Of a stretch of 64,000 nt of DNA, positions 1,383-39,792 are shown piece after piece. The notes beneath the pieces are model-generated. The model had not been told where the DNA came from and did not search any database. It saw only the letters and a program-made list of their open reading frames with translations. The position numbers and the translations under genes are program-made. How positions within the stretch are numbered: position 1 is the stretch's first letter; each line of letters opens with the position of its first letter. Source of the stretch: a phage. The stretch lies in NCBI GenBank assembly GCA_011911785.1, contig GCA_011911785.1_4084.1. One strand, given 5' to 3'.

Positions 1383-2495
1383 ATGAAAAAATACCTTGTT
1401 GGTGGATACTGCCGCGACCGTCTAATGGGCATTCGTGCAAAGGACAAAGATTATGTCATTGTTGGTGCAACTGAATCTGATATAAAATACTTAGAAAGTA
1501 TTGGATATAAACAGGTTGGTAAAGATTTTCCAGTTTATCTAAGCCCAGAAGGTAACGAACACGCATTAGCCCGTACTGAACGAAAAACTGGTACTGGATA
1601 CGGTGGCTTCGAAGTGGATACAAAAGGTGTAACACTGGAACAAGATTTGTATCGTCGTGATCTTACAATTAATGCAATCGCGTATGATCCAGTACTGCAA
1701 ATTCACATCGACCCATACGGTGGTAAAGCTGATATCAAGAATAAAGTACTACGTCATGTATCCGAACACTTCAAAGAAGATCCATTGCGTGTATTACGTC
1801 TAGCTCGCTTTGCTACGCGTTATTCTGATTTCTCTATACACGAGACTACTGAAGCACTTGCAATCGATATGGTAGCGTCTGGTGAGCTAAATCACCTTGT
1901 TCCAGACCGTGTTTATGTTGAATTTGAAAAAGCACTGTCAGAAGAAAAGCCAGCTAAGTTCCTTAAAACACTAAGTAAGTTTGGTTACTATGAAAAAGCA
2001 TTTAATGCTACATTAACCAAAAAGTCATTGGAACTCATTGATCATATCTCTGATAATTGTACTGAAGCATATAAGCCATATTTCTTATGGTCTGTGCTTC
2101 TTGAGAAAGAAGAAGTTGGCGAGGATTCAGTACTGAATGGTGCTATTAAAATGCCCGTTAAGTACGTTAAATTCAGTAATTACATCAAACGTTTCCGTGA
2201 TGATATCAAGGCATTCCGTAAAAAGACCCCAAATGAAATGGGACAATTATTACTGGATATGAATATCAAGAATAACGGCGGTGAAGAATTCCTTTACAAA
2301 GTACTGGAATATTTTATTCTACGTAAAGAGATTGATTTAGACCTTGAAGATTTAATCATTAAGGTATATGATCGTTACACTGATGTAGTACTTCCAGATA
2401 TTCAACAACTGGTAAAAGACGGTGAGTTAGAAGCATCTGAAATCCGTGATTTTGTTTCAGTTTTACGTTGTGAAGCAATTCAACAAATGTTTTAA
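1383..2495 (+). CDS. cca: CCA-adding tRNA nucleotidyltransferase (class II)
   Basis: N-terminal signature VGGYCRDRLMGIRAKDKDYVIV (GGxxRDxLxG...DxD); ATG at 1383 after GGGAGA; ORF track 1362..2495. Confidence 0.9.
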   Translation: MKKYLVGGYCRDRLMGIRAKDKDYVIVGATESDIKYLESIGYKQVGKDFPVYLSPEGNEHALARTERKTGTGYGGFEVDTKGVTLEQDLYRRDLTINAIAYDPVLQIHIDPYGGKADIKNKVLRHVSEHFKEDPLRVLRLARFATRYSDFSIHETTEALAIDMVASGELNHLVPDRVYVEFEKALSEEKPAKFLKTLSKFGYYEKAFNATLTKKSLELIDHISDNCTEAYKPYFLWSVLLEKEEVGEDSVLNGAIKMPVKYVKFSNYIKRFRDDIKAFRKKTPNEMGQLLLDMNIKNNGGEEFLYKVLEYFILRKEIDLDLEDLIIKVYDRYTDVVLPDIQQLVKDGELEASEIRDFVSVLRCEAIQQMF

Positions 2496-2501
2496 AACTC
2501 T

Positions 2502-2529
2502 GGGACAAGAGAACGACTTCTGATATAAT
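2502..2529 (+). promoter_or_regulatory. Sigma70-like promoter (GGGACA - 16 nt - TATAAT with TGn)
   Basis: gggaca at 2502-2507, tataat at 2524-2529, 40 bp upstream of ATG 2569. Confidence 0.5.
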
Positions 2530-2568
2530 AATTGTATCTGGGCATCATTGCTATTAAGAGATAAGATT

Positions 2569-2998
2569 ATGCGTTATAGTTGTGGCATTATATTTTATCG
2601 TGATGGTCAGATACTTGTTGGACACACAACACGGACAGAAGCATTGGGATTTACCAAAAGGTAAAACCGAGGGCAATGAAACATTTGCTGAAGCTGCTGT
2701 TCGTGAGTGCTATGAAGAAACAGGATTTGAGATTGATGAAAAGGATCTTCTCTTATTAGGTGATGTATCATACAGGAAAGGGAAAAGATTAGTTTTATTT
2801 TTCTATACAGCTAAATACAAACCCGAACCGGATGAACTGAAGTGTAACAGTACTTATACCAATCGATATGGTAAAAGCCATCCAGAATTGGATAAATTCA
2901 TGTACATTGATGTTCAAGATTGTCAAAAGTATTTGACCGAACGAATGTGTAACAGTATAATTAAAGCTGTTAAATTGTTTCAAAAAAATAAAGGATAG
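2569..2998 (+). CDS. Nudix hydrolase, reading frame split by an apparent +1 frameshift near 2630-2660
   Basis: Frame 1 from ATG 2569 encodes MRYSCGIIFYRDGQILVGHTT... and stops at 2662; frame 2 (ORF track 2582..2998) continues with HWDLPKGKTEGNETFAEAAVRECYEETG = Nudix box Gx5Ex7REUxEExGU. Confidence 0.75.
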
Positions 2999-3002
2999 TT
3001 AT

Positions 3003-3251
3003 ATGAAAGTGAAAATTTATGGTCGCACGACTGGTTGTAATTTCTGTGATACAGCAAAAGCAATTTGTGAGAACAATTCATTTGAAATGGATTTTATCGA
3101 TGTGGTTTCTGAAGGTATTGATGGTGCTAAACTATCAGAAATTTGCGGTGAGCCAGTTCGTCAAGTTCCACAAATTTTCGTAAATGATGAGTATGTTCCT
3201 GGTGGATGTACTGGTTTTGTTAACGGGCTAAAAGAAGGTCGCTGGAACTAA
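3003..3251 (+). CDS. nrdC: Glutaredoxin/thioredoxin-like protein (T4 NrdC-like)
   Basis: 82 aa, N-terminal CxxC motif GCNFC and overall layout like T4 glutaredoxin (from memory). Confidence 0.75.
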   Translation: MKVKIYGRTTGCNFCDTAKAICENNSFEMDFIDVVSEGIDGAKLSEICGEPVRQVPQIFVNDEYVPGGCTGFVNGLKEGRWN

Positions 3252-3490
3252 TGAATATCGATAAGGTATCATCACGAGCACGTGCATTGGCTGACAGTTT
3301 GGGAGTTAAATTTGAAACTCCAGATATCAACCAATCAAAACAAAAAGCTCAAAAGAAAATTCATGAAATGAAAGAATACACATCAAGACGTGAAGAATAC
3401 GATGCTGCTATTTCTCACATTATTGAAGTGTTTAGTAAAGATGATATTTTAGCATTTATTGCTTCACATGAGGTTGTAAAAAACCCCTAA
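3251..3490 (+). CDS. Hypothetical protein (79 aa)
   Basis: ORF track; start overlaps stop of upstream gene. Confidence 0.5.
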   Translation: MNIDKVSSRARALADSLGVKFETPDINQSKQKAQKKIHEMKEYTSRREEYDAAISHIIEVFSKDDILAFIASHEVVKNP

Positions 3491-3540
3491 ATAATATTGA
3501 AGAACAACAAGTTCTTCTTAACAATTTGGGAGATACTATT

Positions 3541-3783
3541 ATGCTCAGTTTTCGTGAACAATTAGCAAAAGGTCAATTTCAGACTAAAGCTCAAACAAAT
3601 ATTCCTAAAAAATCTGCATTCTTAGGAACAATTACGGAAGATGGTTATTGTGACTTCAATCCACCAGAAGATAGCTGGTATATTGAAAAAGACACAAAAC
3701 GTAGTAATAGACTTCACAAAAGTACAATAGCAAGAAAGCATCGAAAAGAATTGAAGAAAATTCGTTTCGGTGAAGAAGAATAA
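3541..3783 (+). CDS. Hypothetical basic protein
   Basis: ORF track 3526..3783; ATG at 3541 after GGGAGA. Confidence 0.5.
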   Translation: MLSFREQLAKGQFQTKAQTNIPKKSAFLGTITEDGYCDFNPPEDSWYIEKDTKRSNRLHKSTIARKHRKELKKIRFGEEE

Positions 3784-3795
3784 CCTAATAATATA

Positions 3796-3827
3796 AAGGA
3801 CTTGAGATTATCGAGTCCTTTTCTTTT
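3796..3827 (+). terminator. Rho-independent terminator
   Basis: Hairpin aaggacttga/tcgagtcctt (one G-U) with 5-nt loop followed by ttcttttc. Confidence 0.6.
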
Positions 3828-3838
3828 CGGAGCACTAA

Positions 3839-4315
3839 ATGATACATGAACATAGCGGCAATCTGTTTGATTTATTCAGTACTGTAACTGATGATCATAC
3901 AGCATTACATATTATAGCTCATGGTTGTAACGCACAGGGTAAGATGGGTTCCGGTTTTGCAAAAGAACTCAGAATGCAGTACCCAAAGGCATATGATGAT
4001 TATAAAGAATATGAAAAGAGAATGGGTTTTCTAAGAACCGGACAAATTGCATATTCAGCAATTAATGATGATTTGATTATCGCAAACTGCATTACTCAAA
4101 AATGGTACGGAACTGATGGTGCAAAATACGTAAGCTATGATGCCATTGACGACGTTTTCATGCATTTGAATTTTTTCTGTAAAATTGAACGAAATGTTCA
4201 TGTACACTTTCCGAAAATTGGAGCCGATTTGGGCGGTGGTAACTGGAACGTTATCAAAGAAATCATTGACCACAGGCTGGTTAATGCTGAAAAACATTTA
4301 TATATTCTCAAATAA
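3839..4315 (+). CDS. Macro-domain (ADP-ribose binding/processing) protein
   Basis: Motif HIIAHGCNAQGKMGSGFAKEL resembles the macro-domain NxxGxMGxGxA signature. Confidence 0.55.
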   Translation: MIHEHSGNLFDLFSTVTDDHTALHIIAHGCNAQGKMGSGFAKELRMQYPKAYDDYKEYEKRMGFLRTGQIAYSAINDDLIIANCITQKWYGTDGAKYVSYDAIDDVFMHLNFFCKIERNVHVHFPKIGADLGGGNWNVIKEIIDHRLVNAEKHLYILK

Positions 4316-4334: not shown

Positions 4335-4643
4335 ATGACTATTACCGTTAAACTACTAAACATCAACAACGTTGGCCCAGTACTAGCAGTTCTACAAACC
4401 GATGCTCCAGAAGCAGTAGTAGTTAACTACCCAGCACAGCTAGGTACTGACGAAAAAGGTGAAATCATTCTACGTGATTATCTAGAATTTATTAGTTCAG
4501 AAAAAGGTGTTATTTTCTTCAAATCTAACATCATCAGTATCAGTGATGCAAACCCTGCACTGGTTGATGCTTATGTTGAAGCAATTAAGACTCTAGAAGA
4601 TAAGCCAGCGTTGATTGTCCCTGACAACAAAATCATCCTATAA
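4335..4643 (+). CDS. Hypothetical protein (~102 aa)
   Basis: ORF track 4185..4643 overlaps the macro gene; first non-overlapping ATG at 4335 after AAAGGA. Confidence 0.5.
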   Translation: MTITVKLLNINNVGPVLAVLQTDAPEAVVVNYPAQLGTDEKGEIILRDYLEFISSEKGVIFFKSNIISISDANPALVDAYVEAIKTLEDKPALIVPDNKIIL

Positions 4644-4655
4644 TAGAGGTATAAA

Positions 4656-5033
4656 ATGGCTGCTAATGAAGTGAAAGCAAAAACTATTCAAGCTATCGTA
4701 GTACTGAAAGGTAAAACCCCATCACCAAAAGAATTGGTTATGGCTGGCATGACTATGCTACATCAGTACAACCCAGCATCCCCTAACTATGTTCAAGAAT
4801 ATGAAGCCAAACAGTTTAAAGCTCATTGGGATTCATGGATTAAAGACAATGAACTGGAACAAGTTGTCTATGAAGCAGATGACATGGATGAAATGATGCA
4901 GATTGAATATCTTGCGAATCAGCAGTCAGTACCACTAAGTATGTTTGGTAATGGGGAAGAGGTTCTAGTACTCGGCCCCTTCACTAAAAAAGATATTGAA
5001 CACATTGTCACTAACTGTACAAAGATAAGTTAA
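4656..5033 (+). CDS. Hypothetical protein (125 aa)
   Basis: ORF track; ATG after GAGGTA. Confidence 0.55.
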   Translation: MAANEVKAKTIQAIVVLKGKTPSPKELVMAGMTMLHQYNPASPNYVQEYEAKQFKAHWDSWIKDNELEQVVYEADDMDEMMQIEYLANQQSVPLSMFGNGEEVLVLGPFTKKDIEHIVTNCTKIS

Positions 5034-5245
5034 TGAGCGATCATCTTTTAACAGGTGTTTATAATCATAAATTAATAGTCGGGAATACTCATTACTGGAT
5101 TGAGCCAAATCAAGACTATATAATATACTATCATGATGGGAAACATATATATTCAGTTAGTATATTTGGTTTCCTTGATATGATAGATACTGAACACTTT
5201 GTTAACTTAGTTTATTTGCGTTGTTGGTACGATAGACTAAGCTAA
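5033..5245 (+). CDS. Hypothetical protein (70 aa)
   Basis: ORF track; start overlaps upstream stop. Confidence 0.5.
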   Translation: MSDHLLTGVYNHKLIVGNTHYWIEPNQDYIIYYHDGKHIYSVSIFGFLDMIDTEHFVNLVYLRCWYDRLS

Positions 5246-5296
5246 ATCAATAGCACCTCTAAATAATGTATATAAACATTAAAGAGGTGCTTTTTT

Positions 5297-6088
5297 ATGT
5301 CATATGACTATATGGGTGGAAATCCAGATGCCCCAAATTACGATCACCGTGAAAAATTAAAAGATGTGATTACACAAATGTTGGGTGCTGGTGCTGTTGA
5401 AGTTGAAATTACTGATGGACAATTAGAAATCGCAATCGATAATGCGGTATCAAACTACAGAGCATGGAGTTCTGCGTCAAAAGAAGAAGCTTTTTTAAGC
5501 ATGAAATTCTATGATTCTCAATCAGTTTACATGCTACCAACTGAAGTGGAAATTGTTAAGAAAATTTATCGTTATGGTAATGGTTATTTGAGTTCTGGTA
5601 GTGGTAACTCAGTTGATCCATTTTCAATTGCATTTACAAACACATATCTACTAACGTCTGCTCGCAACGCTGGTGGTTATGATTTAACAACCTATGACTT
5701 CAGCTTCCAGTTTCAGGAATTAGTAGGTCGTATGTTTGGACGTGAGATTATTTTCCAGTTTAACCCTATGACTAAGAAACTGGTTATTGACCGTGATATT
5801 CGCGGCACAGAAGAAGTACTGGTTCATGTGTATCATAACATCCCAGAACCACTACTATTCCAACGTCAAATGAGTTATCCGTGGCTTCGTGATTGGGCTT
5901 TATCGGAAGCGATGATTATGTTAGGTCGCAACCGTGCTAAGTTTGCTTCTTTGCCTGGACCACAAGGAACATTTTCAATGGATGGTGATACACTTCGTAA
6001 TGAAGGTATGCAACTCCAGGAACAACTTAAAGAACAGTTGAAGAGATACAAAGATGGTGGTGAACCACTTGGTATGATTATTGGTTAA
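5297..6088 (+). CDS. Neck protein, T4 gp13-like
   Basis: N-terminal KLKDVITQMLGAGAVEVEITDGQLEIAIDNAVSNY and C-terminal WLRDWA...LPGPQGTFSMDGDTL resemble T4 gp13 as recalled from memory. Confidence 0.55.
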   Translation: MSYDYMGGNPDAPNYDHREKLKDVITQMLGAGAVEVEITDGQLEIAIDNAVSNYRAWSSASKEEAFLSMKFYDSQSVYMLPTEVEIVKKIYRYGNGYLSSGSGNSVDPFSIAFTNTYLLTSARNAGGYDLTTYDFSFQFQELVGRMFGREIIFQFNPMTKKLVIDRDIRGTEEVLVHVYHNIPEPLLFQRQMSYPWLRDWALSEAMIMLGRNRAKFASLPGPQGTFSMDGDTLRNEGMQLQEQLKEQLKRYKDGGEPLGMIIG

Positions 6089-39305: not shown

Positions 39306-39329
39306 AGGAGCCATTGGCTCCTTTTTTTT
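39306..39329. terminator. Bidirectional rho-independent terminator
   Basis: Hairpin ggagcc-att-ggctcc with A-run upstream and T8 downstream, between convergent genes. Confidence 0.75.
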
Positions 39330-39792
39330 AATATCTATATGGTAGACTATTGACAAATTGTGTACCAGCGTTTATACTTTCCCATAAAGAATAAAAATCT
39401 TTCATCAAATTAACATTTAATAATGTATTTTTAGCTCCAGGGTGAAGAGGTTTAGGCCATGAGCCAATTTTAACCCAAGCATATCCAGAGCTTTCCTTAT
39501 TGAGAATAGGAACAAACTCATTTTCAACAACAACAACGAAAGAATAATATTTGAACTTACCATTCTTAGTACAAAATACATCAAAGGGTATAATATCAAT
39601 TATATCAGGTAACGAATCTCCCAATTCTTCTCGTATTTCACGATGCAAAGCTTGCAAAGGGGATTCGTTGTATTCGAGTTTTCCACCAACAAAAGCCCAG
39701 TTGTTTGAATAGGTACTGCTTTCAGATCTAAGATTGAGCATCATATGACCAGTACTTTTAGATAAAAATATTGCTCCTACTGCCTCATTCAT
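39328..39792 (-). CDS. Nudix hydrolase (second copy, 154 aa)
   Basis: Nudix box GGKLEYNESPLQALHREIREELG. Confidence 0.8.
   Translation of the reverse strand: MNEAVGAIFLSKSTGHMMLNLRSESSTYSNNWAFVGGKLEYNESPLQALHREIREELGDSLPDIIDIIPFDVFCTKNGKFKYYSFVVVVENEFVPILNKESSGYAWVKIGSWPKPLHPGAKNTLLNVNLMKDFYSLWESINAGTQFVNSLPYRY

Follow-up and report, generated by a model that had tools for sequence, protein, structure and literature searches.

A split Nudix gene with a candidate +1 frameshift site in an accessory-gene block of 121Q/A4-like Asteriusvirus phages

A 64,000-nucleotide stretch of phage DNA (NCBI GenBank assembly GCA_011911785.1, contig GCA_011911785.1_4084.1), called the window here, carries genes for a CCA-adding tRNA nucleotidyltransferase (the CCA enzyme), a Nudix hydrolase, a glutaredoxin, and a macrodomain protein within 3 kb of its + strand (1383–4315). 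A sequence-only reading of the window had placed all four there, and Pfam, NCBIfam, PDB, and profile comparisons bear this out. The small open reading frames (ORFs) that it saw interspersed among them are likewise present, at 3251–3490 and 3541–3783, with the start of the second corrected from 3526. The block is positioned between lysozyme/HPF genes and neck/sheath genes. The window has a G+C content of 34–41% and contains no tRNA genes.

Nucleotide comparison of the 4.1 kb around the CCA-to-macro stretch reveals 98.3% identity to Escherichia phage A4 and ~83% identity to 121Q, PBECO4, phAPEC6, Sharanji, and some 30 further Asteriusvirus jumbo phages (320–386 kb). In the GenBank records of A4, 121Q, PBECO4, and others, the genes already bear the labels tRNA nucleotidyltransferase, nudix hydrolase, glutaredoxin, and macro domain-containing protein; the 121Q counterparts are gp539–544. 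The cluster is not a new sighting, as dozens of GenBank records carry these genes. The gene order, lysozyme-(HPF)-CCA-Nudix-glutaredoxin-small ORFs-macro-ORF-PTH2-like-gp13 neck-dNMP kinase-sheath, is maintained in Klebsiella, Salmonella, Erwinia, and Xanthomonas (XaC1) phages and in metagenomic phages. Because the kept order also takes in the lysozyme, neck, kinase, and sheath genes, it reflects general genome collinearity and not a specific linkage of the CCA, Nudix, glutaredoxin, and macro genes.

The split Nudix frame

The Nudix gene (2569–2998, +) encodes a NudE.1-like protein. The domain proposed for this position is real, but it is not encoded in one open frame. An N-terminal segment of 21 codons (MRYSCGIIFYRDGQILVGHTT; 2569–2631, +) is read in the zero frame from the ATG at 2569, preceded by a Shine-Dalgarno (SD)-like AAGAGA at 2556–2561, and a C-terminal segment of 121 codons plus stop (2633–2998, +) follows in the +1 frame. 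The +1-frame part begins just ahead of HWDLPKGK and contains the Nudix box GKTEGNETFAEAAVRECYEETGF, which conforms to the GX5EX7REUXEEXGU signature.

The conceptually joined protein matches Pfam NUDIX at 2e-13 (50.9 bits), covering the profile from position 7, compared with position 26 for the annotated truncated ORF. Its alignment with Aquifex Ap4A hydrolase starts at residue 3, and that with T4 NudE runs through residues 4–113 (40% identity over 121 residues, E 5e-21). The N-terminal segment itself aligns with the N-termini of intact orthologues, T4 NudE, and Aquifex Ap4A hydrolase. These Pfam, Aquifex, and T4 alignments argue for the joined protein as the real product. An Ap4A/RppH-like subfamily, indicated by PDB and NCBIfam neighbours, was dropped since the direct comparison with T4 NudE is better and broader.

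T4 NudE.1, the product of gene e.1, shares the N-terminal strand and the Nudix box with the window protein; the two genes differ in that the window gene must switch to the +1 frame past its codon 21. In vitro, T4 NudE.1 is reported to act on ADP-ribose, NAD, FAD, Ap3A, and NAD-capped RNA, and its role is auxiliary, a catalytic mutant merely delaying lysis. A second, unrelated Nudix gene lies among tail genes of the window (39328–39792, − strand, 154 aa); it is annotated as MutT-like in 121Q, and no similarity of its product to T4 NudE is detectable. Natural Nudix-glutaredoxin fusions, single ORFs of 225–227 aa with both Pfam domains, occur in Erwinia phage Hallingskeid (3516–4199 of locus L009) and Escherichia phage EJP2 (3515–4192 of locus L011). 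Such fusions hint at a Nudix-glutaredoxin link rather than a Nudix-macro link.

The frame is broken by a 1-nt insertion after codon 21. The candidate frameshift site, ACA ACA C GGA (2626–2635, +), is one nucleotide longer than its counterpart in 13 intact relatives. Intact orthologues of 143–144 aa, with ACx ACx GGx at this position, occur in Klebsiella phage fENko-Kae01, Salmonella phage Munch, Hallingskeid, EJP2, a phiKp_21-like phage, a metagenomic phage, and Xanthomonas phage XaC1. Among the intact alleles is ...ACA ACC GGA..., which suggests that a single A was inserted. In the zero frame, the insertion places a CGG codon at 2632–2634 and a TAA stop at 2662–2664.

All nine 121Q-like phage genomes that were read through this position have the insertion, as does one metagenome contig. 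It spans four 121Q-like lineages, including CMSTMSU/Ecwhy_1/EC.P1/BF17 and Turkey5/JNE01, with an invariant site. A flank-anchored pattern scan of metagenomes returned six intact alleles and one frameshifted allele; an IMG/VR scan gave only 121Q itself. A sequencing artefact is unlikely, because the site is no homopolymer and the records were deposited separately from different countries. Every 121Q-like GenBank record inspected that annotates the Nudix gene gives the truncated ORF only.

Both halves of the gene carry the signature of purifying selection, each in its own frame. The ratio of nonsynonymous to synonymous polymorphism (pN/pS) is 0–0.14 for the 21 codons ahead of the site, read in the zero frame, and 0.12–0.23 (about 0.13) for the 120 codons past it, read in the +1 frame. 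These values stand against a between-lineage synonymous divergence of 0.35–0.7 in the C-terminal part, with ~0.06 for Turkey5 versus JNE01. Upstream of the site, the zero frame holds ~7 synonymous changes and one Val/Ile change; the same stretch, read in the annotated (+1) frame, would have undergone radical Leu/Ser, Asp/Gly/Val, and Thr/Ile changes. Past the site, the zero-frame tails of 121Q and the window are of unequal length.

The zero-frame CGG is nearly unused: the long ORFs of the window, 19,164 codons in total, contain it once, and in the tRNA regions scanned ARAGORN finds no tRNA that would read it. Readers of ACA, tRNA-Thr(UGU), and of GGA, tRNA-Gly(UCC), are encoded by 121Q and A4 alike. 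Purifying selection on both halves, together with the near-unused CGG, argues for a programmed event, and a +1 ribosomal frameshift at ACA-CGG-A is the most likely predicted source of the full-length Nudix protein. At this site, the near-unused Arg codon would stall decoding, and GGA would be read instead. The predicted junction sequences of the joined protein are DGQILVGHTTGQK in A4 and ILIGHTTGQNHWDLPK in 121Q.

Programmed +1 frameshifts driven by a slow A-site codon are known from E. coli prfB and from yeast Ty1 and Ty3. As in these cases, the short zero-frame ORF stops soon past the Nudix site, and a conserved protein is regained on moving into the +1 frame. The A-site codon of the zero frame is likewise extremely rare, and lineages have kept the site. 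Unlike prfB and Ty1, the Nudix site offers no P-site re-pairing, and its nearest counterpart is Ty3-type out-of-frame decoding. Several observations count against a programmed frameshift of a familiar kind: a move from ACA to CAC leaves the P-site tRNA unable to re-pair, no SD-like stimulator is seen upstream of the site, and a predicted downstream fold has a z score of −2.7 but 0 compensatory pairs among five sequences. Lacking re-pairing, an SD-like stimulator, and a covariation-backed structure, the putative mechanism would be atypical and non-canonical.

Other routes into the +1 frame were rejected. A quadruplet-decoding tRNA is ruled out, since the Thr and Gly tRNAs of the phage have anticodon loops of the normal 7 nt. 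Slipping back by two (−2) on ACACA fails because that sequence is not conserved, 121Q having CATACA, and transcriptional slippage fails for want of a homopolymer at the site. We found no literature report of a Nudix frameshift in phages. The event appears to be unreported so far and to be the sole part of the locus worth bench work in its own right.

We tentatively propose, as a possibility short of even chances, that 121Q/A4-like Asteriusvirus phages make their NudE.1-type Nudix protein only by this conserved, programmed, Ty3-like +1 frameshift at ACA-CGG-A, driven by an almost unused Arg codon and proceeding with no re-pairing. Nudix output could thus follow the supply of phage tRNA-Gly(UCC) and tRNA-Thr(UGU), and so of the CCA enzyme encoded upstream. 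The CCA enzyme could tune the Nudix protein in this way because the tRNA-Thr gene of both phages and the tRNA-Gly gene of 121Q lack an encoded CCA. A contrary explanation, which we regard as rather doubtful, is that the insertion is inactivating and the Nudix gene of the 121Q-like clade disabled, leaving at most a truncated protein from the ATG at 2603 or nothing functional. The frame is, after all, broken in all 121Q-like genomes checked, GenBank annotators called only the truncated ORF, and the site has neither a canonical slippery sequence nor a stimulator; moreover, T4 NudE.1 is only auxiliary and the phage has a second Nudix gene. A disabled gene is, however, difficult to reconcile with strong purifying selection on each half in its own frame at a synonymous divergence of up to ~0.6, or with an upstream segment whose frame-0 changes number ~7 synonymous to one conservative when the annotated frame would show L/S, D/G/V, and T/I replacements. 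The zero-frame SD-like sequence and ATG are conserved, whereas the ATG at 2603 has no SD, and the truncated ORF lacks a segment that forms a core strand in Nudix proteins.

The CCA-adding enzyme and the macrodomain

The CCA enzyme (1383–2495, +; 370 aa) is a class II tRNA nucleotidyltransferase of the CCA-adding type, as judged by Pfam, phrog, and NCBIfam matches and by its motifs. Pfam PolyA_pol matches at 6.6e-18 (65.7 bits against a cut-off of 23) and PolyA_pol_RNAbd at 1.7e-7 (31.3 against 22), and the protein falls into phrog_2244 (1e-113). The closest NCBIfam models are the Cca equivalogs (5e-81), ahead of PcnB (1e-25), with all scores under their cut-offs; the Cca match covers residues 1–201 only and reaches 272 bits against a 451-bit equivalog cut-off. 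Its PDB matches comprise CCA-adding enzymes and poly(A) polymerases. The translation contains the class II head motifs GGYCRDRLMG and KDKDY, the latter with the DxD carboxylates, and the neck motifs B (YRRDLTINA) and D (EDPLRVLRLARF). Neck motifs B (RRD) and D (EDxxR) select CTP/ATP. CCA addition, as opposed to poly(A), CC-only, or A-only addition, is predicted from the nearest models.

E. coli Cca (PRK10885) aligns with the phage enzyme through head and neck over residues 1–201, and the class II motifs are common to both. The E. coli protein has an HD phosphohydrolase domain, which the phage enzyme does not: no Pfam match to such a domain and no HD dipeptide were found in the phage protein, and its C-terminal 170 residues have no HD match. 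The label "multifunctional ... phosphatase" attached to the A4 and Sharanji proteins, and the "phosphatase" note in 121Q, were therefore rejected as over-annotation.

In E. coli, CCA is part of every tRNA gene, and a number of T4 tRNAs rely on the CCA enzyme of the host. Among the seven annotated tRNA genes of 121Q (72.6–78.0 kb; six of the seven confirmed by ARAGORN), three have no encoded CCA, namely Gly(UCC), Ser(ACU), and Thr(UGU), which end in ...C followed by an A-rich spacer. CCA is encoded by Ser(UGA), Met, Asn, and one odd Arg/Leu-like gene. The odd gene, located after Ser(UGA), is given as Leu(taa) in the 121Q annotation and as Arg in Sharanji, and is not found by ARAGORN. In A4 (304–307 kb), two of six tRNA genes, Asn(GUU) and Thr(UGU), lack an encoded CCA. 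Because several phage tRNA genes lack it, an ordinary role for the CCA enzyme in the maturation and repair of the phage's own tRNAs fits the gene content. The host has its own Cca, which weighs against this role, since the phage copy would at best be needed quantitatively.

The authors of the RaK2 study suggested that the phage CCA enzyme serves maturation or repair of phage tRNAs, and Iyer et al. (PMC7824862) placed the jumbo-phage CCA enzyme under tRNA repair. We found no paper in which a phage CCA enzyme acts as counter-defence. In the record of fENko-Kae01, which is the sole proteomic record for the Nudix protein, the orthologous CCA enzyme, the intact Nudix protein, and an HPF-like protein are flagged by liquid chromatography-tandem mass spectrometry (LC-MS/MS) in a >300-kDa-filtered lysate; its authors caution that such detection is not proof of virion membership.

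The macro gene (3839–4315, +) encodes an ALC1-like macrodomain of 158 aa, supported by PDB, profile, PADLOC, and T4 Tk.4 comparisons. The protein itself falls under the Pfam threshold (17.5 against 22 bits), and many of its homologues pass. Direct PDB sequence matches are BT1257 (8.5e-14), SCO6735 (1.5e-9), and Poa1p (6e-8). A family profile of 33 sequences matches BT1257 (2e-25), SCO6735 (4e-19), Poa1p (1.6e-15), DarG (3–4e-12), TARG1 (2.5e-10), and ALC1 (0.01), and all 16 PDB profile matches belong to the ALC1-like class, not to the MacroD or PARG types. The sole PADLOC match is DarG (2.2e-10), confined to the macro part (positions 17–136 of a 329-position model); no C-terminal DarT-binding domain follows the macrodomain, and the protein is thus not a DarG. 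The family, traced by tblastn in 2,425 phage records, includes T4 tk.4.

Comparison with T4 Tk.4 gives 31% identity, a BLASTP E of 9e-13, and a probability of 99.5% by hhalign (E 1.2e-22). The macrodomain assignment of the sequence-only reading, which profile comparison with its exclusively ALC1-like matches and this hhalign result could have overturned, thus holds. Its remark that the macro/CCA combination is not part of the canonical T4 set is wrong for the macro gene, as T4 tk.4 is homologous, and the Nudix (T4 nudE) and GrxA/NrdC-like glutaredoxin likewise have T4 counterparts. Tk.4, also named AdfM, is likewise a stand-alone macrodomain of ~155 aa in a lytic coliphage and shares the motifs IAHGCN, MGSG, N..TQ, and P(K/R)IGA..G.GNW with the window protein; their genomic contexts differ. 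Residues H28, N31, Q87, G128, G133, and G134 are invariant in the family. Gln87, invariant in the 33 homologues, replaces the catalytic Lys of DarG (K80) and TARG1 (K84), as do Gln85 in SCO6735 and the corresponding residue of T4 Tk.4.

These relatives point to a DNA substrate. The 121Q/A4-like group, to our knowledge, is not known to build a phage nucleus, unlike PhiKZ. Deletion of T4 tk.4 (adfM) sensitises T4 to DarTG2 (bioRxiv 10.1101/2025.11.20.689424). PhiKZ gp104 (AdfM), described as DarG2-like and imported into the phage nucleus, frees DNA of the ADP-ribose added by DarT2 and shields the phage from DarTG2, as demonstrated by biochemistry and genetics (PMC13309987). SCO6735 rescues cells from DarT and takes thymidine-linked ADP-ribose off DNA, for which Gln85 is essential (PMC9411070). 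SCO6735 and BT1257 (PDB 5E3B and 2FG1) are the best solved-structure relatives of the window protein and share with it both the Gln at the DarG/TARG1 Lys position and the His and Asn of HxCN. Homology and common active-site motifs with T4 Tk.4 make the window protein a likely member of the AdfM family and a likely anti-DarTG2 factor, and a role against ADP-ribosylating immunity is a reasonable expectation from this kinship.

Two differences count against a DNA substrate. Lys34 and Lys89, which position DNA in SCO6735, align with Ser38 and Gly91 of the window protein, and the phage family is mildly acidic (median pI 6.0), compared with a pI of ~9–10 for the aligned parts of BT1257 and SCO6735. 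We considered rejecting the DNA substrate over the lost lysines and the acidity and judged the objection weak: T4 AdfM has the same MGSG at the SCO6735 Lys34 position and shares the TQ and IGA motifs. The same features would suit a small-molecule enzyme, either an ADP-ribose-1''-phosphate phosphatase of the Poa1p type or an O-acyl-ADP-ribose deacylase, working with NAD-dependent RNA repair (2'-phosphate removal of the KptA/Tpt1 type) or degrading ADP-ribose-derived signals instead of de-ADP-ribosylating DNA. Poa1p is indeed a strong full-length PDB match (1.6e-15), a 2H phosphoesterase lies nearby in relatives, and Iyer et al. (PMC7824862) predicted roles of this kind. We nevertheless consider such an enzyme unlikely, given that T4 Tk.4/AdfM, with the same active-site motifs, protects specifically against DarTG2, that BT1257 and SCO6735 are nearer than Poa1p, and that no KptA gene is seen in the neighbourhood.

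Transcription signals and neighbouring genes

A candidate sigma-70-like promoter with an extended −10 element (GGGACA-16-TGaTATAAT; 2502–2529, +), scoring 10/12 with TG in a consensus scan, is located between the CCA and Nudix genes. The site is conserved in A4, 121Q, and the CMSTMSU-type and Turkey5-type lineages. Directly upstream of the macro gene, the scan identified an intrinsic-terminator-like hairpin with an 11-bp stem and a T-run (3795–3821, +). This hairpin is present in all eight phages compared, its stems varying with complementarity retained through compensatory changes. A second hairpin, AGCACCTCT...AGAGGTGCT with a T-run (5252–5296, +), was recognised by eye, its long loop having hidden it from the automatic scan; it directly precedes the gp13-like neck gene (5297–6088).

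These calls are consensus matches. Because the conserved promoter-like site and the two terminator-like hairpins divide the stretch, we infer about three transcription units. Promoter-like matches are no commoner in the window than in shuffled sequence, which weakens this division.

The glutaredoxin (3003–3251, +; 82 aa) is GrxA/NrdC-like. It matches Pfam Glutaredoxin at 4e-9 (36.9 bits against 22.9), carries its CxxC site as CNFC at residues 12–15, and reaches 1.9e-18 with NCBIfam GrxA, where its 66.4 bits remain under the equivalog cut-off of 84. The following small ORF (3251–3490, +; 79 aa; phrog_34640) is poorly conserved, with 59% identity to 121Q and ~30–35% to Munch and EJP2, and its sole other signal is a glutaredoxin-like match under threshold. 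Distant relatives have a gene for a tRNA-associated YqeY-domain protein between the glutaredoxin and macro genes (4919–5326 of locus L005 and 4689–5120 of locus L007), which is not found in the window; the ORF at 3251–3490 was considered as this gene and proved unrelated on comparison. The next ORF (3541–3783, +) encodes a small basic protein of 80 aa (pI 9.5), its start set by alignment at 3541 and not 3526. Its 42 homologues, all within this jumbo-phage group, share 59–93% identity, and it is better conserved than the adjoining enzymes. AlphaFold predicts a mostly extended, non-globular protein with a long C-terminal helix (pTM 0.33), and no PDB, Pfam, or NCBIfam match was found, including by profile against PDB.

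Past the macro gene lies a conserved acidic ORF (4335–4643, +; 102 aa; phrog_527), and of eight related loci compared, all but that of XaC1 have an orthologue. The acidic ORF is followed by a PTH2-fold protein (4656–5033, +; 125 aa) that structurally best matches the Pth2-like protein Atu0240 and whose Pth2 Pfam score (20.6) is below the cut-off of 23. The protein shares the fold of archaeal and eukaryotic Pth2 and differs from them by a 9-residue gap that removes the catalytic loop (DAGxTQ). Neither an Asp nor a Lys is conserved among eight orthologues.

Ahead of the CCA gene lies a small conserved ORF (1258–1380, +; 40 aa; phrog_34272, 6.7e-30), with orthologues in 121Q, XaC1, Hallingskeid, and Munch, whose stop sits 2 nt before the CCA ATG. 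In A4, an additional 1068-bp ORF (A4_535; 3191–4258 of locus L001) with a DUF4379 treble-clef zinc finger is inserted between these two genes (window ~1381); neither the window nor 121Q has it. The insert probably represents mobile DNA, for example a homing-endonuclease-like gene. Further upstream, the neighbouring ORFs at 421–837 (138 aa) and 824–1246 (140 aa) are tandem paralogues with C-terminal thirds ~40–44% identical, and neither has a family match. A 2H phosphoesterase gene upstream of lysozyme occurs in one distant relative (278–703 of locus L005) and not in the window.

A block of separate jobs or a single module

The data directly show what the domains are and to what they are homologous, the synteny, the 1-nt insertion, and the pattern of selection, and we consider these best explained together. 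The locus is probably an accessory-gene block of 121Q/A4-like Asteriusvirus phages, organised in about three transcription units with separate jobs and with its Nudix protein made by +1 frameshift, and not one system. The CCA enzyme, with head and neck and no HD domain, would finish and repair tRNA 3' ends, those of the phage's own tRNAs first. A promoter-led unit would express the NudE.1-type Nudix, the GrxA/NrdC-like glutaredoxin, and the two small proteins, and a third unit, past the conserved terminator, the macrodomain, the acidic ORF, and the PTH2-fold protein. The macrodomain would most likely remove ADP-ribose from DarT2-modified thymidines in phage DNA. In this account, the transcription units, in vivo substrates, anti-DarT2 activity, and frameshift mechanism are our deductions from sequence comparison.

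The sequence-only reading had proposed one coordinated counter-defence set, in which the CCA enzyme, Nudix, glutaredoxin, and macro proteins would together mend nuclease-cut tRNA 3' ends and clear ADP-ribose or NAD-derived immune products. The genes do remain adjacent across a wide phage group, further RNA- or tRNA-related genes occur in the neighbourhood of relatives (HPF, a YqeY-domain protein, a 2H phosphoesterase, and a PTH2-fold protein), and the macro and NudE.1-like Nudix proteins both handle ADP-ribose compounds. The idea is already in print for jumbo phages, Iyer et al. having proposed tRNA repair for the CCA enzyme and ADP-ribose processing for Macro and Nudix (PMC7824862; also PMC9503650). 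Such a module is nevertheless quite improbable: the conserved promoter-like site and the conserved terminator part the genes, the synteny reaches unrelated structural genes equally, and the T4 homologues of the Nudix, glutaredoxin, and macro genes lie at scattered loci. The CCA enzyme, moreover, is accounted for by the CCA-less phage tRNA genes, and no literature that we found has a phage CCA enzyme defeating a defence system. The counter-defence idea survives in part, being plausible for the macrodomain through its homology to T4 Tk.4/AdfM and compatible with the in vitro action of NudE.1-type Nudix proteins on ADP-ribose compounds, but its link to the CCA enzyme is unsupported.

The cluster as such matters little, being widely annotated, with its predicted roles published for jumbo phages in 2021–2022 and with NudE.1 and Tk.4/AdfM studied in T4. 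Its four helper genes are ordinary for large phages, and the Nudix frame shift is the one surprise. That the macro protein can be named a likely AdfM offers a direct and cheap host-range test for therapeutic Asteriusvirus phages. If the proposed frameshift is true, the Nudix gene would represent a rare bacterial or phage case of +1 recoding at a sense codon that proceeds without tRNA re-pairing.

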